Virus record (IMG/VR): IMGVR_UViG_3300020202_001036
Location: 1-55,016 of that record
Source: a virus
Lineage: Duplodnaviria; Caudoviricetes
Reading direction: 5' to 3' (one strand)
DNA length: 55,016 nt
Part shown: positions 1,662 through 47,797 of the stretch, piece after piece
Position numbering within the stretch: position 1 is the stretch's first letter
How the letters are laid out: each line of letters opens with the position of its first letter
The notes under the pieces: model-generated
Databases searched by the model: none
Seen by the model: only the letters and a program-made list of their open reading frames with translations
Told to the model about the DNA's origin: nothing
Program-made: the position numbers and the translations under genes

Positions 1662-2302
1662 TCCGCGGCCTCCGGGTAGCGCTTCGAGTAGAGCTTGCTC
1701 GCGTCGGTGAACGTCGCTTCGGCTTGCTTCGCGCGCTCACGCTCGTATTCGTCGAGCGCTGCGCCGCCGCCGGCTTTGCGGATCTTGTCGCAGAGCATTT
1801 TTCTAAAGAGCTGCGGCCCAAGCGTGTCCAGGTGGCGTACCAGGCACGATGTTACCCACGAAGACTCGGAGCCCCACTTGGCCCGAAGCGAATCCTTGTG
1901 CCGATTGTTCGAGGCGCGGACATTCTCTCGCAACTGGATCGGGTCCAGGTTCTTTCGTGGAGCCGAGTCTCCGTTACGGCGATCTCTTCGGCGCTGATTG
2001 TTGAGCTTGTTGACTCTGACTCTACATTCTTCGCAGTGGTCAGCGTTGACTCTCGGGTTTTTCCCGCACCATTTGCACAGTCCAGCTGCCAACAAGCGAT
2101 CCCTTCGCCTAACGTTGGACGCTCTCAGATTCGAGCGAAACCTTTCAGCCCACTCCTTGGCCTGTCTGCACGCATCGGCTTTAGTGAGCGCCTCGTAGTA
2201 GCGAACGACAGCGCCCTGCCTGCCCTTTGAGTCAACCTCGGTGCACGAGAGGATCGCGCCGCTCGCATCGGTCTCGATGCGAAACCACTTTTTTTGGATC
2301 AC
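1658..2302 (-). CDS. Hypothetical protein with CxxC-CxxC zinc ribbon
   Basis: GLCKWCGK...HCEECR; coupled to both neighbours. Confidence 0.65.
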   Translation of the reverse strand: MIQKKWFRIETDASGAILSCTEVDSKGRQGAVVRYYEALTKADACRQAKEWAERFRSNLRASNVRRRDRLLAAGLCKWCGKNPRVNADHCEECRVRVNKLNNQRRRDRRNGDSAPRKNLDPIQLRENVRASNNRHKDSLRAKWGSESSWVTSCLVRHLDTLGPQLFRKMLCDKIRKAGGGAALDEYERERAKQAEATFTDASKLYSKRYPEAAE

Positions 2303-3951
2303 TGCTTGTCTCCGTTCCGCTTGGCGCGCGCGTCGGAGAGACTCGGGACGCTCGGTGCGGTGCGTTCACGCCGGCGCTCACCGAGTTCCTGAACGATGCT
2401 CTGAGCGAGCTGCCACTGCTGGCCGGCGATGGCCTGCGTCAGCGCCGCGGCGAGGGCGCGCTCGACCGGGCTCTCTTGGCCCACCCCCCCGATCCCGGCT
2501 GGGCCAACGCTCTGTCCCGTGGTAGTTGACACGGGCGCCGTGGCCCGTTTTGGCTCGGCTGGAGGAACCAGTGCTTCGAGCCGATTATCCGTATTAGGTG
2601 TCCCCGACATCGCTAACGACTTGCTTTCGTTGGCAAACGCTAAAAGTTTGGCCACCTGCTGGCCCAGGTCGGCGAGGAGCGTGGGCCCGCCCATCTCTGG
2701 TCCCTGCAGTCCCTGCATCCACGGCACGACGTAGCGATCGGATAAGGGCTCGAGACCGAGTTCGGTGACGAATGCCTCGTCGAGGGGGCGCAGCCAGACG
2801 CGGACGGTATCGCGCGACTCGCGCGCCATGCGGTTGTAGCGACTCACCATCTCGTCGCTCATGTGCCCCGTGCGATCGGTGACCCAATGCATTGGTGCGC
2901 CAGCGCGCAGCGCGAGCGTCACGAACGTGGCTCGACCGGCATCCTTGGCCGCGATCTGCCGCTCGGTGGCCGTGTTCCGGTGCAGCGCCGCGCGGTCAAC
3001 GCCGGCGGCGAGCAGGTCGGCGCGGAGCGTGCGCGCGATCTTTTTGTGAGTCCACTCGGGCAGCACGCGGTCGCTTGCGGGGACACGCTTGCGCCACGCG
3101 CTGAGCACGCGGAGCACGCGCTCGCAGACGGGCCAGCGCCGGACCCGCTTCTGCTTGTGACGGTGCGTCAGCAGTCCGCTCTCGAGGTCAATGGTGCTGA
3201 CGATCGAGTCCGCCGGCGCGCGGTCGGCCCAGTAGAAGAGCGTGAGGAACTCGGGGCGCACGGCCTCGCGGGCCATCAGCCCGTAGCCGATGCGGCGCCA
3301 CGTCGGCGCGGGCCCAGTGACGAGCCGCCACTCTTCGTCGGCCGTGAGGTATTGGAACAGGCGCTCCGGAGCCGACTGCTTGGAGACGAAGTCAGGGCGC
3401 AGCGGAATGTGGTCGATGAGCTCGAGCTTGCGCGCGTGCTGGAGCACCCGGAAGATGAGCCCCTCGAAGAGATGGCGACCAGCCCTTACGGTCTCCGGCA
3501 CGAGAGCCATGGCCTCATCGGCGGCTAAGCTGGTGACTTGGGCCACCGGGACCCGGCCAAGTCGGGGAGCTATCACGCGGAGCCGCTGGCGGTCCTTCTC
3601 GATGGTGTGCTCCGAGTTGCCGCGCCGGCGCTGGTCGGCGAAGAGCAGTTCGGCGACCTCGCCGAAGGTCTTGGCCGAACGTGAACTGGCGCGCGCAACG
3701 GTCGAGGCTGCGAGTTGCCGCACCTCTGCCTCCAACTCCGCAAGAGCAGACTCTGTAGCCGCCGCAGCTGTCTCCAGGATGCCGCGCGCATCGTCCGCGC
3801 CGGAGACTAGTCTGGCGAGCTGAACGAGCCGTGCCTCGCGCGCCTCGGCCGCCGACTGAGTCGGCGCGCTGAACGTGAACCTGTCGCGCTGACCCGCGCC
3901 GTAGCGCAGGCGAGTCTCCCAACGGGCCGGGCCTATGCGTCGAACAGTCAC
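2299..3951 (-). CDS. int: Tyrosine recombinase / phage integrase with long C-terminal extension
   Basis: REAVRPE (R), HKQK (K), KDAGRATFVTLAL (degenerate HxxR), TGH and VSRY (Tyr codon 2836-2838); GTG start coupled to the upstream stop. Confidence 0.85.
   Translation of the reverse strand: MTVRRIGPARWETRLRYGAGQRDRFTFSAPTQSAAEAREARLVQLARLVSGADDARGILETAAAATESALAELEAEVRQLAASTVARASSRSAKTFGEVAELLFADQRRRGNSEHTIEKDRQRLRVIAPRLGRVPVAQVTSLAADEAMALVPETVRAGRHLFEGLIFRVLQHARKLELIDHIPLRPDFVSKQSAPERLFQYLTADEEWRLVTGPAPTWRRIGYGLMAREAVRPEFLTLFYWADRAPADSIVSTIDLESGLLTHRHKQKRVRRWPVCERVLRVLSAWRKRVPASDRVLPEWTHKKIARTLRADLLAAGVDRAALHRNTATERQIAAKDAGRATFVTLALRAGAPMHWVTDRTGHMSDEMVSRYNRMARESRDTVRVWLRPLDEAFVTELGLEPLSDRYVVPWMQGLQGPEMGGPTLLADLGQQVAKLLAFANESKSLAMSGTPNTDNRLEALVPPAEPKRATAPVSTTTGQSVGPAGIGGVGQESPVERALAAALTQAIAGQQWQLAQSIVQELGERRRERTAPSVPSLSDARAKRNGDKQ
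2470..2700. other. Candidate attP inside the integrase 3' end
   Basis: AT-richer patch 2580-2650; minus-strand GTCGGGGACACC (2597-2608) resembles a tRNA 3' acceptor end; flanked by TGGCCCA/TGGGCCA-like repeats. Confidence 0.4.
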
Positions 3952-4286
3952 CGCCCGACCCCCCACATCTTGCGCACGCGGTCTCGAACCGATACGACGT
4001 TTTCAGCGACTGGTATGGCCTTGACGGTGGGTTCGCAGTGACCCAGTCTCCGCATCTCCTCTTGCAACGCATCCCGTGTCATCAGATACAGCTTCCCGTC
4101 TCGTGTGCAGTCGATGCGCCCCTCCCCCATGCGCCTCCTGACCGCTCTGCAGTGTCGCCGGGGCCCGAGCGGGGAATTTGCTTGGGAAACCCAGCTATCT
4201 CCATCCGCGGCGCGGAGCTCTCTGGCGAGCTCCCTCGCGATCTCGGCGGCAAGCGCCTTGCCGAGCGTCCCCAGGATTGAGTCCAA
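3948..4286 (-). CDS. Excisionase-like small DNA-binding protein
   Basis: GGAGG then TTG start at 4286; basic protein (RHCRAVRRRMGEGRIDCTRDGKLYLMTRDAL) directly upstream of int. Confidence 0.55.
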   Translation of the reverse strand: MDSILGTLGKALAAEIARELARELRAADGDSWVSQANSPLGPRRHCRAVRRRMGEGRIDCTRDGKLYLMTRDALQEEMRRLGHCEPTVKAIPVAENVVSVRDRVRKMWGVGR

Positions 4287-6862: not shown

Positions 6863-7239
6863 CCGACGCCCGCTGCACGGCCCAAAGCCAGCGCACCGGC
6901 GCCCGCTGCGTGCGCAAGGTCGCGATCGGCGACCGCTGCTGGGGCCACGGCGCCAACGTGCCCGGTCCCTGCGCGCTGACGCTCGACGGCGGCAAGCCCG
7001 TGATCTGGTTCTGCGACGAGCGCGGGGGCTTTAGGCGAAACCCGCGCGCCGCGACGAAGTGGGCGGCGGTGCAGCTCGTGCTGCGCGGCGTGATTCAGCA
7101 CGGGTGGTTTCTCCGGCACAAGCCGCAGCGGTTCCTGCGCCGGCTCGAGCGCGCTGGCGTGACCGTGGTGCCCGCGGGTGTCGGGTTCGGGCGCGTGTTT
7201 CGGTATCGGTTCGAGGCTGCGAAAAGCCAGGCCGCTTGA
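6859..7239 (+). CDS. Hypothetical protein with N-terminal HGGxSTG-like Cys motif
   Basis: RCTAQSQRTGARC...RCWGHG; ATGA coupling. Confidence 0.55.
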   Translation: MTDARCTAQSQRTGARCVRKVAIGDRCWGHGANVPGPCALTLDGGKPVIWFCDERGGFRRNPRAATKWAAVQLVLRGVIQHGWFLRHKPQRFLRRLERAGVTVVPAGVGFGRVFRYRFEAAKSQAA

Positions 7240-7255
7240 GAGGAAAGCCAAGACG

Positions 7256-34615: not shown

Positions 34616-34812
34616 CCTGGACCGGCGTCGCCAAGTTCCTCTGGGAACTGGGCAGCGAACTCTGGCACGAGCGCCAGCGGCGGAAAGCGCGCTCGCGCGC
34701 CGCGGAGCACTGGGCGACGACTTCAGCCCCAGCGCGCGCGTGCCCGCGGTGCCGCGAGATCGCCTACGTACCGGGCCAGACGACGTGCACCAAGTGCGGA
34801 GCCGCGCTGTGA
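34612..34812 (+). CDS. Small zinc-ribbon protein
   Basis: CPRC..CTKCG; GTGA coupling. Confidence 0.5.
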   Translation: MTWTGVAKFLWELGSELWHERQRRKARSRAAEHWATTSAPARACPRCREIAYVPGQTTCTKCGAAL

Positions 34813-35432
34813 AATTTACGGGCGTGCACCACGCCGTGCTGGTCTACCGCTCGATGGGCTTCCGCGTGGTGCCTCTGTACGGGGTCACCAACGGGCAGTG
34901 CGCGTGCGGCTCCTATCGCTGCAAGGAACGCGACGCGGGCAAGCACGAGCCGCCGGCGACCGACGGCGCCTGGAAGGATGGTGCCGAGCACGGCCCCGCC
35001 GACTTCGGCACCGAAGACAACGTTGCGCTCGCCATGGGCGCCTGGAATGGCTCCGCCGACTGGCTCGTCGCGCTCGACATCGACGGCCCGCTCGACCTGT
35101 CCGAAATCGGCTGGACGCTGCCGCCGACGCTGACGCAGCGGAGCCCACGTGGGCGGCACCTGGTGTTCTCCGTGCCCGCCTACACCCCGCTCGGCAACTG
35201 GGTCGACGCGCTCGAGACGAAGGCCAGCTTTGGTGCCTCGCTCGACCTCCGCTACGCGCGCGGCCGCATCGTTGCTGCGCCGAGCCGCAACGCCTTCGGT
35301 GCCTACGAGTGGGTCGACTTTCGGCCGCCAGCGCGGCTGCCGCAGGCAGCCATCGACGACATCCTCGACCGCCGTGCCGCGCGGGGCCTGCCCGTGGACA
35401 CGGAATGGCGCCGCGGCAGCAAGCGGCCATGA
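34809..35432 (+). CDS. Bifunctional primase-polymerase (Prim-Pol) N-terminal domain protein
   Basis: GFRVVPL..CACG..C..GKH; VALDIDG; SPRGRHLVF; DLR..GRIVAAPSR..YEW. Confidence 0.85.
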   Translation: MKFTGVHHAVLVYRSMGFRVVPLYGVTNGQCACGSYRCKERDAGKHEPPATDGAWKDGAEHGPADFGTEDNVALAMGAWNGSADWLVALDIDGPLDLSEIGWTLPPTLTQRSPRGRHLVFSVPAYTPLGNWVDALETKASFGASLDLRYARGRIVAAPSRNAFGAYEWVDFRPPARLPQAAIDDILDRRAARGLPVDTEWRRGSKRP

Positions 35433-35438
35433 GTTCCC

Positions 35439-37769
35439 ATGGCGCAGAGGTTTCGCCCACCACGCGACGTCCCTGATATTGGGGCCACACCCGCTGAACA
35501 GGCGCGGTTCAAGGCGTGGCTGCGCACCGCGTTCGTCGAGCTCGCCGAGGACATCGCCGCGCTCGGTCGCATCGACGCTCAGACGGTTGTCGCCCAAGAG
35601 ACCATCGACGTAGCCGAGGGCTCGCTCCGGCGCGTGACTCCGCCGTCGGGCGGCATGGCGGTCCGCGTCCCGCCGCCGCACCCAGGCAACGCGGGCGCGA
35701 CGATCCGCCTCATGATCGAGGCGCCGGTCGGTGCGCTCACCATCGTGGCGCGGCCCGGCGTTGGCGACGATGGCAGAGTGTTCCAGCCCACGATCAACGG
35801 GCAGAGCGCGGCCACGTTTACGGCTTCTGGGCTCGTCGTGCTCACGTCGAACGGCGAGGACGACTGGAAGTCGGCGGCCGAGTTCGCCGCGGAGTCGCCG
35901 GCGAGCATCGTCATGCGCTCCGGAGGCTCCGCGCTCGACGCGGAGTACCTATTACGCACCGCAAACGCTCAACTGCCGAACGCGCGTGTCGCTGATGACT
36001 CGACCGAGATCGATATCAACTACTCGGCGCCGGCTCTCGTCAGTTGGTTCCTGAAGACTGCCAGCGTCGCATTCTCGAAGCTCGCCAATTTGACGGGGCT
36101 GAGCGTGCTCGGGCGCGCCGCCAACAGCGCCGGAGTCATGGCCGCCATTACGGCCACGGCGGGTCGCCAGGTGCTACGAAACAATGATGCTGGCACTCAG
36201 ATCGAATGGGGCAACCCGATTGAGGCGCAGCTCGACGACGTCGACCAGGGCGACGTGCACACGATCAATAGGGAAGACGGACGCCTCAGTGTCGCGGGCG
36301 GGATCGCCACATTCGCGAAGCCGCAGTCGGTTTCGGATGCGCCGGCAGGAACCCAGAACAGCTACCCGCTGCCGGCCACGTTGAAGCATGGCGACATTCT
36401 GAGTTGGAACCTGTCTGGTGGAGCCGTCACGTTGAATGGGATCGACTCGACGGGTGTACCCGACGGCTTCGAGTTCACGCTAACTCAATCCAATGGCGGT
36501 CTACCTGACGGGAATCAGCTTACGGTTGTAGACGAGAGCGGATCCGCTGGCGCCGCTGGATATCGCATCGGCACGCCAGATAACATCTCCATGATCGTTG
36601 GCACGGCCGGCGCCATCCGTTTCCGTCGGTTGGGCGATCCTGCCACTGGTCGATGGTTTGCCGTCGAACGCGGTTTCCCGCGTTCGTCCACCAGTATCGT
36701 CTACGGAGGCACCAGCGGGCGCGAAGCGCAGCGCGCTGCACTGACAGGATTCGCCGCAGCTCCTCAGAACAGCAACGCGACAACGAGCGCGGAGCCGCTC
36801 GTAACATACAGCGCAAGCGCCAACATGAGTGCCGAGCGCGTGCTTACAACGAGCACATCAAACACAGTCGACGTTTCGGTTGCTGGACAGATTCAAGTGC
36901 GAAGCGCTGCAAAAACAGGCGCCATCTCGCAAGCCGCCAACTCAAACGCCACGCAGTTTGCTGGCATCCGCGACAACGGGTCGCTCGAAACAGCGCGTGG
37001 GTTCATCAACGTGCTGTCCACCAGCACCATCACCGCGCTGGGCACGCAAGACGCGGGCAACGATGAGATCGAGCTGACGTGGAACGTCAATCTGGCTGCT
37101 GCGTACGCTTGGACAGGCAGTCATACGATTGGCGGCTCGGCGAACTGGACGATGAATTCCACCGGTGACTACGCCGTCACGGCGGCAGTGGTGGGGTTGA
37201 TTAGCAGTAGCACGATGGGGCTCGACGCCGTTGGGACATTGACGCTCGAGTCAGACTTGAACGTGCAGGTCAATGCCGACGCGCTGTATCTGTCGGGCGA
37301 CGGATTCCTGGTGTTCGATTCCGCGCCTGCGTCGACGCCTAGCCTCGGGACGCAACAGGGCATGTTCTGGGTGTCTCCGTCGTCTGCATCGGCCGAAACG
37401 CTACCTAGGTTCACCGACTCCGCCAACTCCGACCGTCGCCTGCTTATGTCGTTCGACCAGTTCTCGTTATCCACAGCGACCGGCGCCATCGGGACGGCGG
37501 CGCTCGATGACGAGCACGATGTCTTTCGTTGGAGTGGCGGGGCCAACGCGGACATTGACGGATGGTCGGGAAACCTGTGGAACGGGCGAGTCCTGTGCAT
37601 CAGGAATACAACCAACGCTTTCACGCTCACGGTCAACCATGCCGCAGCGGCTACTCCTGCGAACGGGGTCAGATGTCCAGGGAGCGCGGCATTCGCGCTT
37701 GGCCCCAACAGTAGCGTGCTAGCAATTTACGATACAACCACGTCGCGGTGGCACTTAGTGGCTTACTGA
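35439..37769 (+). CDS. Tail fibre / receptor-binding protein
   Basis: 776 aa, Gly/Ser/Thr/Ala-rich; three related modules ending DDWK, GRWF and SRWH. Confidence 0.7.
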   Translation: MAQRFRPPRDVPDIGATPAEQARFKAWLRTAFVELAEDIAALGRIDAQTVVAQETIDVAEGSLRRVTPPSGGMAVRVPPPHPGNAGATIRLMIEAPVGALTIVARPGVGDDGRVFQPTINGQSAATFTASGLVVLTSNGEDDWKSAAEFAAESPASIVMRSGGSALDAEYLLRTANAQLPNARVADDSTEIDINYSAPALVSWFLKTASVAFSKLANLTGLSVLGRAANSAGVMAAITATAGRQVLRNNDAGTQIEWGNPIEAQLDDVDQGDVHTINREDGRLSVAGGIATFAKPQSVSDAPAGTQNSYPLPATLKHGDILSWNLSGGAVTLNGIDSTGVPDGFEFTLTQSNGGLPDGNQLTVVDESGSAGAAGYRIGTPDNISMIVGTAGAIRFRRLGDPATGRWFAVERGFPRSSTSIVYGGTSGREAQRAALTGFAAAPQNSNATTSAEPLVTYSASANMSAERVLTTSTSNTVDVSVAGQIQVRSAAKTGAISQAANSNATQFAGIRDNGSLETARGFINVLSTSTITALGTQDAGNDEIELTWNVNLAAAYAWTGSHTIGGSANWTMNSTGDYAVTAAVVGLISSSTMGLDAVGTLTLESDLNVQVNADALYLSGDGFLVFDSAPASTPSLGTQQGMFWVSPSSASAETLPRFTDSANSDRRLLMSFDQFSLSTATGAIGTAALDDEHDVFRWSGGANADIDGWSGNLWNGRVLCIRNTTNAFTLTVNHAAAATPANGVRCPGSAAFALGPNSSVLAIYDTTTSRWHLVAY

Positions 37770-37795
37770 TTGTGTGACTTCGGAGATTGGATCCA

Positions 37796-37984
37796 ATGGC
37801 TCAGCGCAAACGCACCCGCCGCACACAGGAAGAGTACACGATGCCGATCAACGACGCGCTCGCGCTGCTGCTGCCTCAGCATGTGCCGCAGGACGGTGAC
37901 ACCTGGACGCTATTCGTGCGTGACGGCACCCTGGAGATGACGCTGACGCAAGCGCCAGAGGTGCTGACGGGCAGTTCACGGTAG
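37796..37984 (+). CDS. Hypothetical protein
   Basis: Short ORF after the fibre gene; start uncertain. Confidence 0.4.
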   Translation: MAQRKRTRRTQEEYTMPINDALALLLPQHVPQDGDTWTLFVRDGTLEMTLTQAPEVLTGSSR

Positions 37985-38473
37985 CGCTTCGCCGGTGCCT
38001 GGATCGACGGTGTTGCAGTCGAGCGCGGTCACGTCGACGAGGCCAACTTCGCCGTACGTTCGCACCACCGCGTTCTCAGGATCGACGATGAGACTGAGCG
38101 ATAGCGGAGCCCCATCCGCGTCCGTCCCGCCACGCGGGTCGAGCGTCGACCAATCGGTCAGAAAGCAAAGCCCGCCCGTATAGTAGGCGATGTCGACGAC
38201 ACGATCGCCGCGTCGCTCGACAGAGCAAATCCCGGAAACGTTGCCGTCGGAAAATGTGACGTGCTCGGCCTCCACGGACACGCGCACGTCGCCGCTCGAG
38301 TAGGAGCCGGCGCATTTGACGCTTGCGGTGACACGGACGCCATCGGCGCCGGGTGGGCCCGGGGCACCAGGTGGGCCGTCCGCGCCACGCTCACCGGGCG
38401 CGCCGGGGGCTCCAGTCTCGCCTCGCTCGCCAGAGCATCCAGCCACCATCAAAACGAGCAAAAACCGCCTCAC
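37976..38473 (-). CDS. Collagen-like repeat lipoprotein (moron-like)
   Basis: VRRFLLVLMVAGC lipobox followed by GERGETGAPGAPGERGADGPPGAPGPPGADG. Confidence 0.75.
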   Translation of the reverse strand: MRRFLLVLMVAGCSGERGETGAPGAPGERGADGPPGAPGPPGADGVRVTASVKCAGSYSSGDVRVSVEAEHVTFSDGNVSGICSVERRGDRVVDIAYYTGGLCFLTDWSTLDPRGGTDADGAPLSLSLIVDPENAVVRTYGEVGLVDVTALDCNTVDPGTGEALP

Positions 38474-38576
38474 CCGCGGCACTACGGACGCCGCACCGGC
38501 GTCTTTAGGCCCTCCGCCTCCGCGCCTAGTCCGATGGCCGGTTGCCTGCCAGCCGGTTCCGCGCTTCGCTCCGCGG

Positions 38577-38903
38577 ATGCCTGCCGACACCCACGGCCCA
38601 TTCCCCTTCGAGGCGGTTCGCGACCTGCTCGGGATCGCCCGAGCGCTCTACCGTGCCGCGGACGGTGAGCCCCAGCGCCAGGCCGAGCTGCAGCACATCG
38701 GGACGGGGCTGCGCGAGGCCCTCGAACTGGCGCGCAGCAGTGGCGAGGGCACGATGGGGCGCCGTGCCGCCTGGGCCAAGGCGGAGCGCGCCGCCAAGGC
38801 GCTCGGGGAGTTGGTCGCCGACGGATGCACCGTCGAGCCGCTGGTGCACGCCACGGCGGCGCGTCTGGCGCGTGGCCGGCGCACACGGGCGCGCAATCAG
38901 TGA
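38577..38903 (+). CDS. Helical hypothetical protein
   Basis: MPADTHGPFPFEAVRDLLGIARALY...; appears all-alpha. Confidence 0.55.
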   Translation: MPADTHGPFPFEAVRDLLGIARALYRAADGEPQRQAELQHIGTGLREALELARSSGEGTMGRRAAWAKAERAAKALGELVADGCTVEPLVHATAARLARGRRTRARNQ

Positions 38904-38948
38904 GCAGTTCAGTGGTACGGCTATCCGAGTCCGTGGAATCGTCCCGCC

Positions 38949-39254
38949 GTGGCCGCCGTCACTCCCCCGATCGAGGGGCCATTCTTCGTCACCGAGCGCG
39001 CCGCGCGCGATTACGCCACGCTGATGCGCCTGGACGACCTCGAGCGCGCCCGGACAGAGCTCGCCCAGCTCGCGGCGCGGGCCCACCTGGTGAGGCGCCA
39101 GGCGAACGGGCTCGAGCTCTGGCGCGTCAAGGCATTCGACGGGCAGCGACTCCGCCTGCTCGTCGGCGAGCCCGCTGCGCGCTTCCCAGGCGCCAAACCG
39201 GCGCTGATCCAGGTGCTCGGCGAGTTCACGCGCGGGCCGAAAACGGCCCGGTGA
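38949..39254 (+). CDS. Hypothetical protein
   Basis: Plausible ORF with genome-typical codon use. Confidence 0.5.
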   Translation: MAAVTPPIEGPFFVTERAARDYATLMRLDDLERARTELAQLAARAHLVRRQANGLELWRVKAFDGQRLRLLVGEPAARFPGAKPALIQVLGEFTRGPKTAR

Positions 39255-39296
39255 GCGCGTGTGGCGGCCGGCGCCCGTCTGGGGTATTGTCCGGCC

Positions 39297-39632
39297 ATGA
39301 AGATGGCACTTATCCTGCTAGCGATCGGGTGCGGGTCGGCTGCGGTCGCAGCGCCCAAATCTACCGAGTCCAGACCCGCTGAGAAAGGCTCGCCGTCGAT
39401 GCTGGTGCTCGACAACGGGCCGCCGCCTTCACCAGCGAGCCTCGTTGCGCCTGGCGAGGACCTGGCCGAGTCGCAGGCGAGGCTCGATGAAGACCTGCGG
39501 CTAAACCCGCCTGGCCCCGCGCCAGCGACCTTCTGCGACGCGCCCGAGGACGACCCGCTGGCGCCGGCCGAGCCCGCAAAGACTTCGGCTCGGGCCCGCG
39601 CCAAGCCGAAGTCCGCGGTGTTACCTCACTGA
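39297..39632 (+). CDS. Short Pro-rich lipoprotein sharing 34 codons with 39626..40897
   Basis: MKMALILLAIGC lipobox; TATTGT lies 6 nt before the ATG. Confidence 0.6.
   Translation: MKMALILLAIGCGSAAVAAPKSTESRPAEKGSPSMLVLDNGPPPSPASLVAPGEDLAESQARLDEDLRLNPPGPAPATFCDAPEDDPLAPAEPAKTSARARAKPKSAVLPH
39423..39525 (+). repeat. 103-bp inverted repeat, left copy
   Basis: Exact reverse complement of 40672-40774. Confidence 0.95.
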
Positions 39633-40897
39633 CCGGTCGGGATGAAGCAGCTCAGGTCGTTGTCGTGGATGTCGAGCGCATCGCCGCTCGCATCCATGTC
39701 GATGTCGTTGATGCTCTCGCGATGAAGCTGCGAAATACCCATCGACGTAGCCACCGTCTGCGCGCATGTCAGGCCGGCACGCATGACACCGAAGGTGATG
39801 TCGGCGTATTGGTCGTGGGCGAACGAGAACCCGTGCATCATCTCGTGCAACAGGATGTTGAAGATGCCTGAGCGACGAGGCAGGACTTGAGTCGTGCACG
39901 ACAGGAAATTGAACAACCCTGACCAATTAACGCCGATGTCGACCTTGCTATAGGTGTACATCATGTCGGGGCGTTGAGTGTACTGCACGGGAGGAAAGGT
40001 GCTGCCTGGAAGGCCAGCGGTTTCGCATTCGTCGGTCCACTCGACGATCTCGCCCTGCACAGCGGTGGCGTAGCGCAGCATCAATGGGCCAGCAGCGCTG
40101 AAACGTGCTGCAGCGGAGGCCGGCACGGTCGAGTCGCATTTGACGATGACCTTCGCTTCCGAGACGTTGGTGGTTCTCGGGAAAGTCAGCAGCGTGTTGT
40201 TTTCGAGGTACGTGAACATCGCTTGGATCGCGATCCGAAAGTCTTCACGCTGGCTGCTGTTGTTGGGGCATGCCGTTTCGTCATAGTACCAGCGCCACCG
40301 ACGTCCCGTGGTGCTCAGGTGGATGTAGGGCATCAGGCACGGGCGCCACTCGTTCGTCGTGAGATCTGGGCGCTGGAACAGAGACCCGCAGCGAGCGCCT
40401 GGGGTGCGAAGCGAGTTGGAGTCCAGAAAGTCCACGTGACTATCGATCTGGATGTCCAAAGCCTGGATGTGCCAGGCGTCGTCGCAATCGAGCCCGAAGT
40501 GGCTGCAGTGATCGGGCTTCCCGGGGGCATCGTTGATGCCGTCCTGGAACGCGAGTTCGCCGTGCAGCGCCCAGCCCGCCAGTGCGGGGAAAGAGTCGTT
40601 TGCCTTCTCGACTTCCCCCTCTTCTAGGGGCGGGTCAGCGTAGGGGTCATCTTCGTGCGTCCAGATCCTCTCTGGCGCGGGGCCAGGCGGGTTTAGCCGC
40701 AGGTCTTCATCGAGCCTCGCCTGCGACTCGGCCAGGTCCTCGCCAGGCGCAACGAGGCTCGCTGGTGAAGGCGGTAGCAGGATCTCATTGAGATCTGGGC
40801 GCTCCAGCACCGGCGGCTGCTCCGGTGAGTCGAGCAGCGTCTCGTCGTTGCTGCTGCAGCCCACCGTGAGCGCGAGCATCATCCAAATTCGCTTCAT
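39626..40897 (-). CDS. Lipoprotein zinc metalloprotease (metzincin-like), Cys-rich
   Basis: AAGGA SD; MKRIWMMLALTVGC; HEMMHGFSFAH followed by a GVM Met-turn. Confidence 0.75.
   Translation of the reverse strand: MKRIWMMLALTVGCSSNDETLLDSPEQPPVLERPDLNEILLPPSPASLVAPGEDLAESQARLDEDLRLNPPGPAPERIWTHEDDPYADPPLEEGEVEKANDSFPALAGWALHGELAFQDGINDAPGKPDHCSHFGLDCDDAWHIQALDIQIDSHVDFLDSNSLRTPGARCGSLFQRPDLTTNEWRPCLMPYIHLSTTGRRWRWYYDETACPNNSSQREDFRIAIQAMFTYLENNTLLTFPRTTNVSEAKVIVKCDSTVPASAAARFSAAGPLMLRYATAVQGEIVEWTDECETAGLPGSTFPPVQYTQRPDMMYTYSKVDIGVNWSGLFNFLSCTTQVLPRRSGIFNILLHEMMHGFSFAHDQYADITFGVMRAGLTCAQTVATSMGISQLHRESINDIDMDASGDALDIHDNDLSCFIPTGQ
40672..40774 (-). repeat. 103-bp inverted repeat, right copy
   Basis: Encodes PPSPASLVAPGEDLAESQARLDEDLRLNPPGPAP in both genes. 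Confidence 0.95.
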
Positions 40898-41034
40898 GGA
40901 TTCGTTCCTTTCAGTCGGCGCGCGGGCGGCACTGCGCCACCCGCATCGCCTTTCAATGGCAGCGCTGCTCGCGTGCGGGTCCAAGCCGCGTGGTTCGCGA
41001 GTCAGCGCGATGTGCGCCCGATGGGGCGCGTGTT

Positions 41035-41817
41035 TCACTGATTCTGTGTGGGTTCCTCCTTTGCCTGGCCGCAGATGTGGTCGTCGCAGTGCTGCTCCAA
41101 CCGGCTCCAGGTTACGCGCGACAGATCACCGCCAGGGTCCTCCATTTCGCGCCTGATGCCCTCCAGCAGCGCGAGCGCGGCCGCGAGCTGCCGCCGGAGC
41201 TCGAGCGCCTCATCGCATCCGCACGCATCGACCTCCGCGGGGCGCTCGCTGCGGTAGTCGGGCGCGGGCGCGATCAGGTAGTCGGGAATGGCGAAGCCCT
41301 GCGACTCGTAGTCGGGCTCGCGCTGGATCACGACCGTGCCGGGGCCGATCTGGCCAAACGACGGACACAGCGTGTTCTCGCCCTCGCGATGGCGCACCAG
41401 GCAGAGAGGGCAGAGCGGAGGCGTGCTGGGCTCCAGGGTGGCGCCACCCAGCGGCGCGATGACGGGGCGGAACGGGAGGCTCGCTAGCTCTGCCGCGTCC
41501 ATTGGGCGGGGGCTGGGCAGGAGCGCCTCGAGCGCCGCGACACGCCTGCCAATGTCCTCTCGGATGGCCGTCTCGACGTCTGCGTTGCGGAAGAGCACGC
41601 GGTTCTCGTGCTCGAGCGCGTCGATCCGCTCGCGCAGCGGCTTGCCCTCGGCGGGGTAAACCAGTGCGTCCAGATCGTCGATGCGCCTACCCAACTCGAC
41701 GGCGCGGTCATCAAGCGCAGTGGTCTGCTCGACCAACGCTGTGATGTTCCTGGCGCGTTCGTTCTCCAGCGCTGCAACGCGGCGCCGAATCTCCTCGAAT
41801 TGCTCGAACATCGTCAT
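41035..41817 (-). CDS. Coiled-coil hypothetical protein
   Basis: RRVAALE twice; CPLC motif. Confidence 0.6.
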   Translation of the reverse strand: MTMFEQFEEIRRRVAALENERARNITALVEQTTALDDRAVELGRRIDDLDALVYPAEGKPLRERIDALEHENRVLFRNADVETAIREDIGRRVAALEALLPSPRPMDAAELASLPFRPVIAPLGGATLEPSTPPLCPLCLVRHREGENTLCPSFGQIGPGTVVIQREPDYESQGFAIPDYLIAPAPDYRSERPAEVDACGCDEALELRRQLAAALALLEGIRREMEDPGGDLSRVTWSRLEQHCDDHICGQAKEEPTQNQ

Positions 41818-42140
41818 CGCTTCACCTTCGTGCAGAGAACCTCTCTGATGAGTCGCGCCCACGCATGAGCCTTAAGCCGGTCCGTGGCCGGAAAGCGCAT
41901 GATCCGCCACCCCAGCAACACGGCCGCGTTGTACTTCTCACACTCGTCTCTGACGGCCTTCACGCGGCTGTGACCGCCACCCTGCCCGTCGATCTCAATC
42001 GCCAGTTTCTGCGACGGGAAGGCAAAATCAAATCTCCAGCGCCGCGTCTCGTGAAAGCGATACTCGCGAACCAAATCCCAGCCCGGCACCGGGTTCGCGG
42101 CGAGCGCCTTGGCCAGGTACTCCTCGGCGAGGCTCTTCAC
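41814..42140 (-). CDS. PD-(D/E)XK endonuclease (DUF559/Vsr-like)
   Basis: REYRFHETRRWRFDFAFP..KLAIEIDG..D.EKYNAA..GW. Confidence 0.8.
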   Translation of the reverse strand: MKSLAEEYLAKALAANPVPGWDLVREYRFHETRRWRFDFAFPSQKLAIEIDGQGGGHSRVKAVRDECEKYNAAVLLGWRIMRFPATDRLKAHAWARLIREVLCTKVKR

Positions 42141-42364
42141 CGCTCCCCCAGCGCGCTCGGGTCGAGCCGACCAAACCGCATGGCAAGAAAGCCGTACGCG
42201 CGCGGGTCACGGCCCGCGGCGCGCAACTCGCGGCAGAAGGTCTCGGTGTTGCCTCGGCACCGCATGGCCGTGTAGGTGTCGATCCCGGCGTCCCGAGCGG
42301 CGCGGTAGCGGCGGCGCTGAAGATCATTGAACTCCCTCGCCTGCTCTGGCGTGCGACGCGGCAT
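42137..42364 (-). CDS. Small basic protein with GxDP domain
   Basis: Aligns without gaps to 42364..42747 and 52649..52903. Confidence 0.6.
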   Translation of the reverse strand: MPRRTPEQAREFNDLQRRRYRAARDAGIDTYTAMRCRGNTETFCRELRAAGRDPRAYGFLAMRFGRLDPSALGER

Positions 42365-42747
42365 CAGGCCACCTCCCGCCGCGCCACGAGGCCCGGTCGC
42401 AATGGCAGCGTTCGTCCAGCGGACAGGGCCCGCATCGCGTAGGCATGAGCTGCTGCGCTCCGGCACCAGAACCGCGCCTGACCGGCGGGCATCCCGGCGC
42501 TCTTCAGCTCGGCGTAGGCGGCGCGCCTGCGAGCGGCAGCCTCCGACTCCGACCTCGCCTTGCCCTCCGCCCCCATCAGGTCGGGGAACGCCTGCGGGTC
42601 CACGCCAGCGCCGCGCAGAGTTTCAAGGAAACGAGACCGACTGGTCCGGACCCGAGACGCGACGCGCCAGTCGATCCCGAGCCGGCGCATGAGCGCGTGA
42701 CGTCCCCGCCAGAGCGCGCGCATGTTGGGCGTCGCGAAGCCGGTCAT
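42364..42747 (-). CDS. Basic protein with one full and one partial GxDP domain
   Basis: GGAGG SD; ATG 42747. Confidence 0.6.
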   Translation of the reverse strand: MTGFATPNMRALWRGRHALMRRLGIDWRVASRVRTSRSRFLETLRGAGVDPQAFPDLMGAEGKARSESEAAARRRAAYAELKSAGMPAGQARFWCRSAAAHAYAMRALSAGRTLPLRPGLVARREVA

Positions 42748-43265
42748 GGCTTCGCCTCCCGGCGCCCGCTGGGCGGAACCCAGGTCTGCGGCGGAATCAC
42801 GGCGCGCTGGCACGTGTGGTTGGTCTCGATGCCTTCGAGGCAGCCCTTGCAGGTGCGCTGGCACGGGTGGTTGCTCTCGAATCCTTCGGCGCACCCGATG
42901 CACTCGGGCTGCTTCACCTTCCGCTCCGCTTTCTCGCGCTCGGTCGGGGCTGGGGCGGTGGTCTGCAGGAAGGCGCGGGTGTCGCTGACAACAGAAGCAC
43001 TCCGACCGCCCACGTTGCGCGGCGGTGTGACGGCCATCCACCTGCCCAGCAACTCGGTCGCGGTGGAGAGGCGGGACTTGAGCGAACCGCACAGGTCGCG
43101 CATTCCAGCATCGGCGTCGTCTCCGTCCTGCAGCTCCGCTCGCAATCGCTCCAGCAACTCGGTCGTGGCGGAGAGGCGGGTGTTGGTGTCCCATAGGTCT
43201 CGGGCGAGACCTTGACACGTAGTCACCAACTCTTCTCTAGACATACTATCGAACTTAGTCGACAT
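42744..43265 (-). CDS. Mosaic hypothetical protein with internal repeats
   Basis: RLS[AT][TA]TELL twice; C..C.EG.E.NH.CQR twice. Confidence 0.55.
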   Translation of the reverse strand: MSTKFDSMSREELVTTCQGLARDLWDTNTRLSATTELLERLRAELQDGDDADAGMRDLCGSLKSRLSTATELLGRWMAVTPPRNVGGRSASVVSDTRAFLQTTAPAPTEREKAERKVKQPECIGCAEGFESNHPCQRTCKGCLEGIETNHTCQRAVIPPQTWVPPSGRREAKP

Positions 43266-44823
43266 CGCGCCGCCTTCCGCAACCCTCGTTCGGCCGATGC
43301 GTGTAACAGCACTTGTCACACAGCTTCTGTTGGTTTGCCTCCAACCGCTCCACCTCCGTGCACAGGGCCTCGCAATCGCGACAGGGTTTCTCCAAGGCTT
43401 CGTTCGCAGCGTCGAGCAGTCCGGTGATGTGCTCCACCTCCGCGCGCAGTGCCTCCTGCGTCTCCAGCGACTCACCCAGCGCTTCGTACGCCTTGTGCAG
43501 CTCCGCGCGCAGGGCCGCGGCTTTGGATTCGGCCGCACTGCGCGTTGCCAGCAGCTCTTTATTTACCTGCCGCAGGCGTTCGTTCTGTTTAAACAATCCC
43601 TGCGCGTTCTCCAGCTCAATCTGCTGATGTGCCAAGTCGCGCTCGTTCAGCGCTTGCTCGTGTGCCCGCTCCGCCGCCTCGCACTTGGCTTTCCACTCGG
43701 CGCACTCGGATTCGGCGCGGTCGAATTGGTCGTGCAATGCCTTCAGATGAGCGTTTGCATCTGCTAGGTCCGCTTCCGCCGCTTCCGCCCGATTCATGAG
43801 AGTCGCTTGACCCATCGCCTCCAGGGCCTGCTCCAGCTCTTGTTCCGCGCACTGACGCGCCTCGTAGTGTACCTTCGCGCCAGCCTCCGCCGCCTCGCAC
43901 TTGGCCTTGACCTCGGCGAGCTCGGATTCGGCGCGCTGCAGGTCCTCATCTGCCGCTGCCATGTAACTCTGATACTGGTCTGCGGCCTGGTGGTCTTTGA
44001 GGACTAACCTGCGAACAGCCTCTTCTCGGTCTTTGGCGTACCGCTCCGCCGCATCGGCGCGGGTGTTGGCTGCATGCAGCGACTCGGACACAGCGGCTAG
44101 GTCCTCCGACTGCATCCGGTTCATCGCCTCCAACTCCGCCACCCGGGCATTGGCTGCGTCCAACTCATCCTGAAGGCGGGTCACCTCGCAACCCAGCCCG
44201 ATGCTGCGCGCCTCCAACTCCACCACCCGGGCGTTGGCTGCGTCCAAGAGAGACTCGGCCGCGCGGGCGTGTGATTCCAGCGCTCCGCACTCCGCCTCCA
44301 GCTCCGTCACCCGGGCGTCGCCCAGCGCCGTGATGTCTTCTCGGTCGCGCTCCAACTCCGCCACCCGGGCGTTTGCTGCGGCGAGGTCGCAGTGCAGCTT
44401 GGTCGGCCCCGTCTGGTCGGGCGCGCCATGGTATTCGTCGATGCGGGCCTTGGTCGGGCTCGGCCCCGTGTGCTTGGGTGAGCCGGAAGCCGGTGCGGCG
44501 GCGAGGGCGGCCTCGAAAGCGTCACACGTCGTCTTGGGCAGGTGGGCGAATGCGCGCGTTTCGTACCAGGCCCGCACCCGGTCGAGCGCCGCGGCGAGGG
44601 CTTCGCACTTGGCGTTTGCGGCGTCCAATTCGTCTCGCGTGTCGAGCCAGCGTGCGTTGGCTGCGTTTCGTTCTTTTTCTGCGGTCGCTATCTCCGCGGC
44701 CTGGGCGTCGCACTTGGCGGTCGCAGCGTCCAGCAGACGGAGGGCTTTGGCCTCCAACTGGTAGTCACCATCGCCGTCCGCCAGCGCTGCGCGCTCCTCG
44801 TCCGTCAGTTTCTCCGTGGTCAT
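43255..44823 (-). CDS. Long repetitive coiled-coil protein
   Basis: Repeated LxAANARVAELE and RAESE blocks; AGGAGG SD. Confidence 0.7.
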   Translation of the reverse strand: MTTEKLTDEERAALADGDGDYQLEAKALRLLDAATAKCDAQAAEIATAEKERNAANARWLDTRDELDAANAKCEALAAALDRVRAWYETRAFAHLPKTTCDAFEAALAAAPASGSPKHTGPSPTKARIDEYHGAPDQTGPTKLHCDLAAANARVAELERDREDITALGDARVTELEAECGALESHARAAESLLDAANARVVELEARSIGLGCEVTRLQDELDAANARVAELEAMNRMQSEDLAAVSESLHAANTRADAAERYAKDREEAVRRLVLKDHQAADQYQSYMAAADEDLQRAESELAEVKAKCEAAEAGAKVHYEARQCAEQELEQALEAMGQATLMNRAEAAEADLADANAHLKALHDQFDRAESECAEWKAKCEAAERAHEQALNERDLAHQQIELENAQGLFKQNERLRQVNKELLATRSAAESKAAALRAELHKAYEALGESLETQEALRAEVEHITGLLDAANEALEKPCRDCEALCTEVERLEANQQKLCDKCCYTHRPNEGCGRRRDVD

Positions 44824-45046: not shown

Positions 45047-46174
45047 TCAGCCGTCCTCGCCCGGTTCGCGCGCGATCATCGTGTGCGCGGGCCGCCTGAT
45101 GTTGTTTGGTGAGTTGGCGAGGTATCCGGCGCACCAGGCCAAGGCCTGAGACCTCTCGGTCTCGCTCCACGCCTCCACCGTTTCGCGCGCATCGAAATCC
45201 GGATCGTCCCACGCCGGGTCTATCTCCCGCAGCATCTGCACGAGGCGCCCGCCGTCCACACGCTTGGGCAGGTCCGCGGGGGCGGCGGCTGGCGCGGCAG
45301 CGGGCGGAGGGGGTGTCACCTCGCTGCTCTGCGCTGGGGCCGCCGCCCCCTTGGATGCAACGGGGCCATCATTCCCCGTTGACTGCTTTTTCTGCCCGCG
45401 CATCGCGACGCGGCGCCCGTCGGGTGTGCCCGCCGGGACGGGGCTCGGAGTCGGCTCGGCCGGGATGTCGCTCAGCAGCCCCACGATCTCGGGCGCGAAC
45501 GACTCGGCTTGTGGTTGGTCGCGCTCGGTGGCCTCGTCTACGTCCTGGGCGAGCGCCATCTCAGCGCTCTTGGGGAGCCAAGTGAAGAGCCGTCGTATGG
45601 CCGTCTTTTGCGCCATCGCGTTGTAGTCGTTGACCCAGGGCCCGTTGTTCTTGGCCATGGATCGCGCGCGGTAGCTCTCGACGCGCTCCCGGGTCAGCAC
45701 GGTAAAGACTGGCTCACCATCCGTCAGGCGAGCGACGCCATACACGTGCGTGAGCGGCCCCGGCTCGTCGCAGGGCCTGTGCTTCAGCCTCGGCTCCAGG
45801 CCGAGCTCATACTCGAACAGGTCCCCCTTGAACACAGGATGAGCGTAGATGGCCTTCACCATGCCGCTCCGGCGCGCCAGGTCCATCATGCCCTGATACC
45901 CAATGATCAGAGTGCAAACGTCATTGTATGGAACCAAGTAGGCCTGGCCCAGCGGAGTGTTGACCTCCAGCCCGAGTTGGCTCGCCTGCAACAGGCTCCC
46001 CAGGAACGATTGCGGCGTGCACTGGGCCAGCTTGTGGTTGGTTCGCACCGCGGTTAGCGCAATGCGCGCAATGCGCTCCGGCGAGATGTGGTTTGGCAGC
46101 GCCTGCGCGATTGCGGGCTTCATCTTTTCGAGCAGCGCGACCAGTTCCCCGCCGCGTTTCGCCAAGTCACTCAT
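45047..46174 (-). CDS. recT: RecT single-strand annealing recombinase
   Basis: ALPNHISPERIARIALT..CTPQSFLGSL..LGLE..LGQAYLVPY..IGYQG..GPW..MAQKTAIRRL; AAAGGG before ATG 46174. Confidence 0.93.
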   Translation of the reverse strand: MSDLAKRGGELVALLEKMKPAIAQALPNHISPERIARIALTAVRTNHKLAQCTPQSFLGSLLQASQLGLEVNTPLGQAYLVPYNDVCTLIIGYQGMMDLARRSGMVKAIYAHPVFKGDLFEYELGLEPRLKHRPCDEPGPLTHVYGVARLTDGEPVFTVLTRERVESYRARSMAKNNGPWVNDYNAMAQKTAIRRLFTWLPKSAEMALAQDVDEATERDQPQAESFAPEIVGLLSDIPAEPTPSPVPAGTPDGRRVAMRGQKKQSTGNDGPVASKGAAAPAQSSEVTPPPPAAAPAAAPADLPKRVDGGRLVQMLREIDPAWDDPDFDARETVEAWSETERSQALAWCAGYLANSPNNIRRPAHTMIAREPGEDG

Positions 46175-46646
46175 TTGGTTCCCTTTCATTCGGTGCCGCG
46201 AATGGTCCGAAGTGTTCGATCGCTGCCGCGTCATACGCGCGCGCAGCATCAGATTCGTCTTTGAAGTAGCCCAAATGGATGCGGGCTCCGTTGACCTTGA
46301 TGGTGGCGCGCCAGCCGTTGTGATGTTGGCTCTTGGACACGCCCTTGAAGCGCGACGTTTTGTTCGGCCGCTTGCGAACCATGTTCTGGCTGTTCTGTCT
46401 CTTGGTTGCCAGGCGGATGTTCTCGCGCCGATTGTCCAAGCCGTCGCCGTTGATGTGATCCACGAACAAGTGTTTCGGGGCGCACACGATCTGTCGGTGC
46501 ATCCAAACGATTCCATCGCTCGATCGGCGAAGCGCGTATGCGCGCTCGCCGTGAACCTGGACGCACCACTTCCACCGCCTCAATATCCGCCAGTCGTCGT
46601 CATCAACGACAGCGATGTACCCTTGGGTGAGAGGTATTGCTTTCAC
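46167..46646 (-). CDS. HNH homing endonuclease with AP2 domain
   Basis: IPLTQG..VDDDD..MHR..VDHINGDGLDNRRENIR..SRFKGV..HLGYF..AARAYD.AA...FG.FA. Confidence 0.92.
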   Translation of the reverse strand: MKAIPLTQGYIAVVDDDDWRILRRWKWCVQVHGERAYALRRSSDGIVWMHRQIVCAPKHLFVDHINGDGLDNRRENIRLATKRQNSQNMVRKRPNKTSRFKGVSKSQHHNGWRATIKVNGARIHLGYFKDESDAARAYDAAAIEHFGPFAAPNEREPNE

Positions 46647-47797
46647 GCGCGCCTCTGAACCATCTTCTGGATCTCACGCACCTGAATGGCGCCCGCCGCC
46701 TCCAGTTTCGCTGTGAGCTGTCGCTTCTCCGCCGCAGCCTTGCCCTTCGGGGCCCGCTCGGCGACCACGTTTTCGGCCTTCGATGCGGTCATTTCGATGC
46801 ACGCGGCCATGTCATCATCGCTGAATCCCGCATCCTGCAGGACCGGGAACGCCTTGATCGGATCAAGGTGGCGTCGCGGCTCCGTGACGATCGTCAGCCT
46901 GCGCCGACCGTCGCTGATCTCGCCCCCGTTCCTTATCACGTCGGCCTTCAGCGCGTCGAGCACGCGGTCGATCAATTTCGATGCAACACGAGCTTTCTCC
47001 ACGAGATCGATCTTCGCCTCGTTGGTCCACGTCGCGATCGTCTCGCCATCCTCGGCGTAGCCGACCAGGTCACGGTCCGTGACGATCGCGAAGTCGCGAC
47101 GCATCAGCGCGTTCGCGGCTGGGCACTCGTGTGAGCGGTCGCAATGCGCGCAGTGCGGACCGGGGCGGTACTCACCTGACCATGCGACGATCTCGTCGTC
47201 GATGCGCTGGCGCCAGGTGTCGAGCTCGGTGCGCTGCATGCTGTACCGCTCAATCTCCTGGTCGCGAATCCAAAGCACAGAGGCCTCGGCCCACAGCGCG
47301 GCGCGGTCGTCGAGCAGCGCGAGCGCGGCGTATCCGAGCAGCTGTTCACGGAATGACTTATCGACGCGGCCCCCTTTCCAGTCACCGACGTGCACACCGA
47401 CGGGCCCGCGCCCGAGGATGTCGGCGTGCCCGGTCAGGATCCAGGCGTCGTCTTCGTGTTCGAGTTCAATCTCGGTGAGTGGCTCGGGGAAGCACTCGAG
47501 CACTCGCTTGTCCGACTCGGGAAGGTTCGATTCCCAGAGTTTCACACCCTGCGCGATGAGAATGCGCAGGTCCTTTTCTCCCACGCCGTGTTGGCGCGCG
47601 AGCGCGGGGATGCCGTCCCAGTCGGGCCAACCGCGCTCGACCAGCGTGGCCAATCCGGCGTGCGCGGCCGTGCCGAGTTCCGCGACATCGCTCGTGTCGT
47701 TGATCGGAAGTGTGCTCGGGCGCACTGAGCCCGGGCAGGTGAACGCGAGCGGAAGGGCAGAGCACCTCAACCGTAGCTTCTCATTCATCGAGGTCAC
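46643..47797 (-). CDS. PD-(D/E)XK exonuclease (Cas4/DUF2800-like), RecT partner
   Basis: CPGS..GTAAH..E..GHADIL..DWKGG..QLLGYA..PGPHCAHC..CPA. Confidence 0.8.
   Translation of the reverse strand: MTSMNEKLRLRCSALPLAFTCPGSVRPSTLPINDTSDVAELGTAAHAGLATLVERGWPDWDGIPALARQHGVGEKDLRILIAQGVKLWESNLPESDKRVLECFPEPLTEIELEHEDDAWILTGHADILGRGPVGVHVGDWKGGRVDKSFREQLLGYAALALLDDRAALWAEASVLWIRDQEIERYSMQRTELDTWRQRIDDEIVAWSGEYRPGPHCAHCDRSHECPAANALMRRDFAIVTDRDLVGYAEDGETIATWTNEAKIDLVEKARVASKLIDRVLDALKADVIRNGGEISDGRRRLTIVTEPRRHLDPIKAFPVLQDAGFSDDDMAACIEMTASKAENVVAERAPKGKAAAEKRQLTAKLEAAGAIQVREIQKMVQRRA

Follow-up and report, generated by a model that had tools for sequence, protein, structure and literature searches.

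The DNA analysed here is a stretch of 55,016 nucleotides (nt), hereafter the window, which corresponds to an entire virus record of IMG/VR (IMGVR_UViG_3300020202_001036), classed by CheckV as linear and 100% complete. Its GC content is 66%, its genes include a terminase, a tyrosine integrase, RecT together with a PD-(D/E)XK exonuclease, and a Dam-like methylase, and it is a temperate-looking phage from soil. The subject of this work is the locus at 39297-40897, where two convergent open reading frames (ORFs), one encoding a metzincin-like lipoprotein and the other a short lipoprotein-like product, carry near their 5' ends the two arms of a perfect inverted repeat. We consider how this arrangement may have arisen and whether it is a switch.

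Four sequencing runs were found to contain the stretch, wholly or in part, none of them on record as RNA. Run X1, a soil metagenome, contains 0.99 of the sampled words of the record and is possibly its source, and three further runs (X2, X3 and X4) include parts of it. All four were used as Logan contigs, not as reads, and a minor orientation is invisible in such data. The features of the locus, with lengths of products in amino acids (aa), are the following.

39297..39632, plus strand: short ORF of 111 aa, with a lipoprotein-like leader (MKMALILLAIGC), a tether, a 34-residue shared core and a 36-residue tail.
39626..40897, minus strand: gene of a metzincin-like lipoprotein of 423 aa; its leader is MKRIWMMLALTVGC, its zinc motif HEMMHGFSFAH, and Met372 is invariant; supported by the family alignment, AlphaFold2 (AF2) and Foldseek.
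39423..39525, plus strand: left repeat arm, codons 43-76 of the short ORF; a Logan contig of its own in X1, at 2x the flank depth.
40672..40774, minus strand: right repeat arm, codons 42-75 of the protease gene; crossed unbroken by X3 record 20 (40559-40871).
39526..39556 (partner 40644-40671), plus strand: degenerate inward continuation of the homology, which keeps the acidic EDDP motif of the protease family; seen in the repeat search, BLAST and the family alignment.
39526..40671, no strand assigned: inter-arm segment of 1146 nt, made of the short-ORF tail (plus) and the protease body (minus) with no intergenic space; covered by a single Logan contig (39496-40701) in X1.

The inverted repeat

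Positions 39423-39525 are the reverse complement of 40672-40774 over 103 of 103 nt, just as an earlier note on this DNA, made from the letters alone, had claimed. Both arms are in frame, the 34 common residues being residues 43-76 of the 111-aa ORF and 42-75 of the 423-aa ORF, and in either ORF they begin shortly past a lipobox-like Cys; the same note was equally right that the two genes overlap at their stop ends, by 7 nt (39626-39632). A repeat search widens the arms to 113 nt at 96% (39423-39535 / 40662-40774), BLAST within the record widens them to about 131-134 nt at 93%, and weaker similarity runs some 30 nt inward past the perfect core. The runner-up inverted pair in the window measures 40 nt at 100% and nothing else is nearly as long and perfect; the 103-nt repeat is not explicable by chance. 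The locus was also said to lie where the two transcription arms of the genome converge, with which both the AT skew, positive to 40 kb and negative past it, and the ORF map concur in placing a strand switch here, the exception being a minus-strand ORF at 37976-38590 within the rightward arm.

Concerning the reality of the repeat, the 103-nt arm appears in X1 as a separate Logan contig with a depth of 29.1, the flanks and the middle having depths of 13.8, 14.3 and 12.3. Because the arm is about twice as deep as its flanks, the two copies are real. An inverted copy manufactured by the metagenome assembler might be suspected, this being a metagenome record whose repeated ends (1-138 and 54879-55016, 99%) show assembler overlap, and such an artefact is extremely improbable in view of the independent Logan contigs: besides the doubled depth, all four flank-arm junctions are present in X1, the same left-arm junction is found in X2, and contigs of X3 and X4 each cross one whole arm.

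The protease family

The 423-aa protein matches no Pfam, PHROG or NCBIfam family at E<=0.01, Peptidase_M10 and the other named metzincin families included. A HMMER search of 1.84 billion representatives retrieved 52 proteins at E<=0.001, two of which are the window's own products, and 44 of the 52 were aligned, leaving out fragments, over-long sequences and the weakest matches (P0026, P0038, P0042, P0044, P0047, P0050, P0051 and P0052). Invariant columns of this alignment are H351, E352, H355, H361, M372 and four Cys, M372 (conserved in 44/44) being the candidate Met-turn methionine past the third His. Compared with the consensus HExxHxxGxxH, the zinc motif HEMMHGFSFAH carries a Ser in place of the Gly that the family consensus retains. 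The lipobox, read by eye, is LTVGC, and its Cys14 is nearly invariant across the family.

The AF2 model built with the family alignment reaches a pLDDT (predicted local distance difference test) of 84, compared with 38 from the single sequence. Foldseek against the PDB gives 17 chains at E<=0.001, the ranked ones all being catalytic domains of matrix metalloproteinases (MMPs) or karilysin, with template modelling (TM) scores of 0.5-0.6 by target and 0.22-0.26 by query; structural neighbours in the Atlas, to be taken as leads only, are Peptidase_M10 and M57 clusters. The call of a metzincin protease in the earlier note is thus borne out by the invariant His, Glu and Met residues and by the match of the model to MMP-type catalytic domains, and we class the 423-aa protein as a metzincin-like, putative lipoprotein whose family has no name. 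Ten of its members were looked up, and every one turned out to fall into an unnamed metagenome singleton or small cluster. What is documented here is hence an unnamed family of metzincin-like lipoproteins of about 400 residues, with 52 representatives, all metagenomic and at least two of them on phage DNA, and with a predicted docking N-terminal pro-segment.

Origin of the short open reading frame

The short ORF resembles the family beyond the perfect core. Against a family profile from which the window's protein had been left out, its leader scores 7 bits, compared with -0.8 bits for the best among 200 shuffles, and its lipobox, LAIGC by eye, has the same AIGC as family member P0013. Directly inward of the core, its tail retains the acidic EDDP motif of the family. 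In frame, the GC content at third codon positions (GC3) is 0.76 in the leader and 0.83 in the tail, the protease body having 0.78. Taken together, the comparisons suggest that the short ORF represents the 5' portion of a family gene, cut short some 40 nt ahead of the protease's stop codon.

A different meaning for the repeat could be sought in RNA, since the arms are exact complements on one strand and the two ORFs overlap by 7 nt with no terminator-like site between them: a scan of 37700-42200 gave three such sites (2.1 expected), all elsewhere. A read-through transcript could then fold into a perfect stem of 103 bp, leading to cleavage by a double-strand RNase or to blocked translation of the protease. 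We consider such a device very unlikely, as the Rfam scan returned no match and the 34 in-frame residues, together with the family homology, already account for the repeat.

Probable gene conversion between the arms

The perfect core shows 0 changes in 103 nt and the next 30 nt are about 30% changed, which points to a recent recombination tract; a single duplication decaying uniformly would not leave such a contrast. A naturally occurring variant of the short gene, from another soil run, bears on the same point. X4 record 23 (268 nt, 39391-39658) keeps the ORF open and differs from the window by 11 substitutions and two compensating indels, all of them at 39425-39503, within the arm, its flanks being identical to the window at 39391-39424 (34 nt) and 39504-39658 (155 nt); other X4 pieces differ from the window at 8/200 and 20/286 letters (4-7%). 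An arm-confined block of differences of this kind is what conversion between the arms leaves behind, in one lineage or the other if not in both. The X4 pieces near 40728-40757 run into unlike sequence and X4 gives no cover of 39661-40717, which is not evidence that the gene is absent there.

The repeat has lesser counterparts elsewhere in the record. Coiled-coil genes on opposite transcription arms, one at 7178-7975 (plus) and others at 42744-44823 (minus), encode proteins only about 39% identical and share in-frame inverted patches of 40 nt at 100% (7926-7965 / 42922-42961), 51-55 nt at 87-90% and 31-36 nt at 97%; recombination between them would invert about 35 kb. Given these further in-frame inverted patches between diverged paralogues and the RecT/exonuclease pair that the phage encodes, patchy conversion appears to be a habit of this phage.

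On balance, and with moderate confidence, we favour reading the locus as an inverted, truncated partial paralogue that carries a recent conversion tract and possibly yields a pro-segment-only partner protein. The short ORF would be a paralogue of the protease gene, inverted and truncated so as to cover only its 5' end (leader plus N-terminal pro-segment), and placed in a variable gene slot where the two transcription arms of the phage meet. The copies would already have diverged when a recent gene conversion overwrote one core with the other, by general homologous recombination probably aided by the RecT/exonuclease pair of the phage, and the outcome would be 103 identical bases with sharp edges; the direction and the timing of this conversion, as well as the part of RecT in it, are matters that we infer. 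The shared 34 residues are predicted to form a helix-containing segment that docks on the catalytic domain over the zinc site, serving as pro-segment in the protease, and the short ORF may encode a small lipoprotein, consisting of the pro-segment only, which would bind this protease in trans. The inter-arm segment could in principle flip by homologous recombination, with no sign of programmed or frequent flipping. If this reading is right, the locus is mostly ordinary, namely a conversion-homogenised partial inverted paralogue in a hot spot for accessory genes. The earlier note had held a recent duplication in reserve as its fallback; that idea comes close to the reading favoured here.

Predicted placement of the shared segment over the active site

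In the full-length AF2 model, residues 41-70 of the protease have pLDDT values of 70-82 and include a helix at 55-68, and residues 73-99 form a disordered linker. A model of the complex between protease residues 100-423 and short-ORF residues 20-111 scores 0.72, the best of three controls scoring 0.00; the mark for this score is reached by 116 of 157 solved complexes and by 2 of 215 mismatched pairs, counts that are rough, an own alignment having been used. At least 47% of contacts are common to the runs, and the partner's pLDDT is no lower than 59. The modelled interface comprises short-ORF residues 38-83 and, on the protease side, residues that include 351, 352, 355 and 361 of the zinc motif.

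On the strength of this model it is possible, tentatively and against our own leaning, that the short protein acts as a trans-binding, pro-segment-only lipoprotein, similar to an inhibitor encoded next to its enzyme. The locus would then illustrate that the 5' end of an enzyme's own gene can give rise to a separate gene for the pro-segment only, whose product may inhibit in trans, and that recombination can keep the two matched.

Several points weigh against the favoured reading. First, its start is open to doubt, because the public gene call P0038 (77 aa) begins at the internal ATG 39399, which has a better Shine-Dalgarno-like motif (GAGAAAGG) upstream than the start at 39297; the lipoprotein start at 39297 is hence plausible, not certain, and 39399 is the alternative. 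Second, the tail does not score above shuffles against the family profile (-0.8 bits), so the case for older paralogy past the core consists of one short motif and a pairwise similarity over about 30 nt. Third, no homologue of similar length was found among 5.8 billion proteins except its own call, P0038; the gene is thus not conserved, and it may be a by-product with no function. Fourth, 8 of the 11 substitutions of the X4 variant fall at codon positions 1-2 and 8 of the 34 core residues are altered, so that no purifying selection is visible on the core. Fifth, the X4 variant may stem from both arms evolving in concert, and that would be equally compatible with frequent recombination or flipping. 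Finally, the pass of the complex model is partly expected, because the partner includes the N-terminal segment of the enzyme itself, a situation close to pairing two halves of one gene; what the pass mainly suggests is therefore that the pro-segment lies over the cleft, and not that the short protein is produced or inhibits.

An alternative is that the short ORF is useless or untranslated, being all that is left of a partial duplication in inverted orientation or of a second protease gene since deleted, and that its perfect core is an accident of recent recombination with no consequence. The orphan status of the ORF, the weak ribosome-binding site before 39297 with the differing public gene call, the mostly non-synonymous changes in X4 and the lack of any promoter-like site (0 in a scan that covers the sigma-70-type consensus only) all speak for such a relic. 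We nevertheless judge it unlikely, if a serious contender, as the ORF is open in two diverged variants with its frame preserved across two indels, its in-frame GC3 of 0.76-0.83 is near the 0.78 of the protease body, its leader is a good lipoprotein signal in common with a family member, and the shared segment with the next residues is modelled over the active site with high confidence.

Relatives and the variable gene slot

The locus is framed by the following features, two genes and one upstream element.

38949..39254, plus strand: 101-aa gene, left frame of the slot, 42 nt upstream of the short ORF; 75% identical to 6932-7216 of the IMG/VR contig L006; GC3 0.89.
41035..41862, minus strand: 275-aa gene, right frame of the slot, upstream of the protease gene on the same strand; N-terminus 56% identical to L006 3711-4106.
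40898..40975, minus strand: upstream element with a GAAAGGA ribosome-binding site and a GC-rich hairpin, boundary of the swappable slot; conserved in L006 4110-4185.

The related phage contig L006 retains both framing genes and the upstream element; what lies between them is three unrelated genes for lipoproteins. The upstream element, about 75 nt long, is conserved by eye at about 90%, and its homology goes no further than the start codon, which in L006 belongs to an unrelated metzincin lipoprotein gene; its hairpin in the window is no more stable than those of shuffled sequences (z-score -1.46). The L006 slot (4163-6881) holds a 289-aa ORF with HEAGHMFGFGH, a canonical HExxHxxGxxH, a lipoprotein of about 300 aa and a convergent lipoprotein of 247 aa. 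Neither such a repeat nor the short gene is present in L006, where the longest inverted repeat is 30 nt at 70%. The other relative, L004, a 2.3-kb metagenome contig, encodes a 416-aa family member of 41-44% identity followed by phage-like genes downstream, and shows neither a repeat nor a convergent short gene.

On these two comparisons, the point where the transcription arms converge is a swappable slot and a hot spot for lipoprotein cargo, and the repeat is peculiar to the window's lineage. The earlier note had proposed to check the orientation of the segment in related genomes; both relatives with context (2/2) are without the repeat and the short gene. As a separate observation, L004 carries at 1512-1715 (plus strand), directly downstream of the protease homologue, a Cys-rich ORF of 67 aa with a signal-like N-terminus, unrelated to the short ORF.

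L004 was the sole match among JGI metagenome contigs. Among 50,697 records of isolate phages no relative was found either by the DNA of 38900-41100 or by the terminase protein, and none was found in IMG/VR scanned with the protease, the short ORF and A2, a seven-row family alignment made for database scans, nor among GTDB species genomes scanned with A2 and the terminase.

The proposed inversion of the inter-arm segment

The central proposal of the earlier note was a phase-variable switch, possibly driven by RecT or the integrase. In the form considered here, the 1146-nt segment would regularly invert through the 103-nt arms by means of host RecA, the phage RecT or the integrase, so that the protease body would move between two leaders and two transcription units, altering its timing or its membrane sorting. 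The recombination genes that come into question are these.

2299..3966, minus strand: tyrosine integrase, the only site-specific recombinase found.
45047..46516, minus strand: RecT-family annealing protein, the phage's own recombination function (PF03837, E 9e-45; phrog_148, E 4e-86).
46643..47797, minus strand: PD-(D/E)XK exonuclease, partner of RecT (PF12705, DUF2800, phrog_69).

Part of the proposal holds on inspection. Inverting 39526-40671 in silico does give two intact chimeric ORFs, of 424 and 110 aa, as had been stated, the arms being perfect and in frame. The arm-confined mosaic of X4 shows that the arms recombine, and a crossover between them would invert the segment, RecT and the exonuclease being at hand. 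The residues from the lipid-modified Cys onwards also differ between the two leaders, CSS versus CGS, and residues after the lipidated Cys could alter lipoprotein sorting. Moreover, invertible regions with no nearby recombinase are on record (PMC9881135).

Other results stand against it. The lack of a serine invertase, already remarked in the earlier note, is confirmed by 0 matches to Resolvase (PF00239) in six frames. The single match to PF00589 is the integrase at 2299-3966, some 35 kb from the locus, and no recombinase is present among the 26 proteins scanned. With other sites of the genome the arms share only 11-13-mers and no sequence resembling an attachment (att) site; their dyads are only imperfect ones of 7 nt, and they contain no dyad-symmetric recombinase core. 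Contigs spanning an arm show the assembled orientation in 2/2 cases (X3 record 20 for the right arm, X4 record 23 for the left arm), in agreement with the assembled record, these being contigs only; the X1 contigs break at the arm and neither orientation can be read from them, so their graph, which fits either, carries no information on flipping. Neither of the two joints on record (38219>38780 and 39695>41764), whose sides measure 21-22 nt, falls at the arms. The repeat is missing in the two relatives with context, and the fact that the other inverted patches of this genome would invert 35 kb argues for incidental, not designed, repeats.

A flip would exchange the signal peptides and about 28 tether residues but no functional domain, the mature protease being unchanged from residue 42 onward in either form. 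The layout is also reversed with respect to known gene-altering inversions, the partial copy being here the N-terminal leader and the alternative C-terminus a 36-residue tail without homologue. Hence, with no invertase, relatives devoid of the repeat, one orientation in the arm-spanning contigs and an exchange of leaders only, the claim of a phase-variable switch is not supported, and we hold regular flipping to be improbable, leaving it some weight because the arms do recombine and contigs cannot show a minor orientation.

A more specific version would be a phage "leader-swap" switch that needs no invertase: general or RecT-driven recombination through the arms would place the protease body behind one or the other lipoprotein leader, and in one or the other of the opposed transcription arms, with the other leader passing to a protease-binding, pro-segment-only partner. 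We regard it as a long shot; if true, a single recombination event would change the timing or the sorting of a surface metzincin together with that of its inhibitor. For scans of this kind the case holds a warning: finding convergent genes joined by a perfect in-frame inverted repeat is not by itself evidence of phase variation.

Comparison with known systems

The invertible G segment of phage Mu and C segment of P1 are flipped by a serine invertase (Gin or Cin) at short crossover sites and have one promoter, with a constant N-terminus outside and two alternative fibre ends inside the segment. The locus resembles them in being a phage-borne segment bounded by inverted repeats within genes, but differs from this Hin/Gin/Cin type in showing none of the invertase, crossover-site and one-promoter features. 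In the sap locus of Campylobacter fetus, inversion is RecA-dependent, proceeds through long conserved 5' gene segments with no dedicated invertase and moves a single promoter between full-length surface-protein genes, resulting in antigenic variation. That mechanism is what a flip-flop at the present locus would need; unlike in sap, each leader here has its own start and the mature protease would stay unchanged.

With respect to the protein, the pro-domains of MMPs and the short propeptide of karilysin are N-terminal segments lying over the catalytic cleft of an enzyme with HExxHxxxxxH and a Met-turn. A structure with the karilysin propeptide (PDB 4r3v) is among the Foldseek matches of the protease model, and the shared 34 residues with the acidic motif are likewise modelled over the cleft. 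In contrast to these zymogens, no Pfam, NCBIfam or PHROG model covers the present protein, and its catalytic domain has roughly double the size of that of an MMP.

A parallel for a separate inhibitor is offered by the potempins of Tannerella forsythia, lipoproteins of 98-132 residues encoded beside secreted KLIKK-peptidase genes, including that of the MMP-like karilysin; they bind and inhibit the peptidases (PMC9890683). Potempin complexes 8b2q and 8b2n are also among the Foldseek matches. As in those pairs, a lipoprotein-like ORF, here of 111 aa, lies beside a metzincin-like gene and its product is predicted to sit over the zinc site; unlike here, the potempins are encoded upstream of their peptidases, on the strand of the latter, and do not copy the N-terminus of the enzyme.

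Similar in DNA layout are gene-altering inversions and shufflon-like loci, in which the recombinase usually lies in or near the locus, alternative C-terminal specificity domains are supplied to one expressed gene, and the coexistence of both orientations has been demonstrated by long reads (PMC9881135; 10.1101/2023.03.11.532203); phage tail genes are mentioned there as inversion targets (PMC9881135). The locus shares with them and with "partial intergenic invertons" (Milman et al. 2023; Chanin et al.) inverted repeats within coding sequence and an in-frame joining of a constant part to the other end of a partial copy, with no non-functional intermediate. It is unlike those gene-altering inversions in having no invertase, in that the partial copy is an N-terminal leader with its own start, and in that the alternative C-terminus is a 36-residue orphan tail.

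Genome context

The record contains 0 tRNA genes. Despite its linear class, its ends are repeated, 1-138 being a direct repeat of 54879-55016 (138 nt, 99%), and the phage genome is therefore probably circular or terminally redundant, with about 54,878 nt.

The minus-strand ORF at 37976-38590 within the rightward arm encodes 204 aa with a lipobox-like LMVAGC and collagen Gly-X-Y repeats (PF01391, E 1e-6), and adjoins the gene of a 776-aa putative tail fibre. At 17183-22180 (plus strand) a 1665-aa protein includes, at residues ~1165-1261, a weak stretch resembling an Alt-like ADP-ribosyltransferase (phrog_802, E 6.5e-7), the Pfam match to ADPrib_exo_Tox being below the cut-off; it may be an ejected virion protein. 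Immediately before the putative tail fibre gene, at 34740-35432 (plus strand), lies the gene of a 230-aa Prim-Pol domain protein (PF09250, E 1.6e-15), and a place beside a tail fibre is an unusual position for a replication gene.

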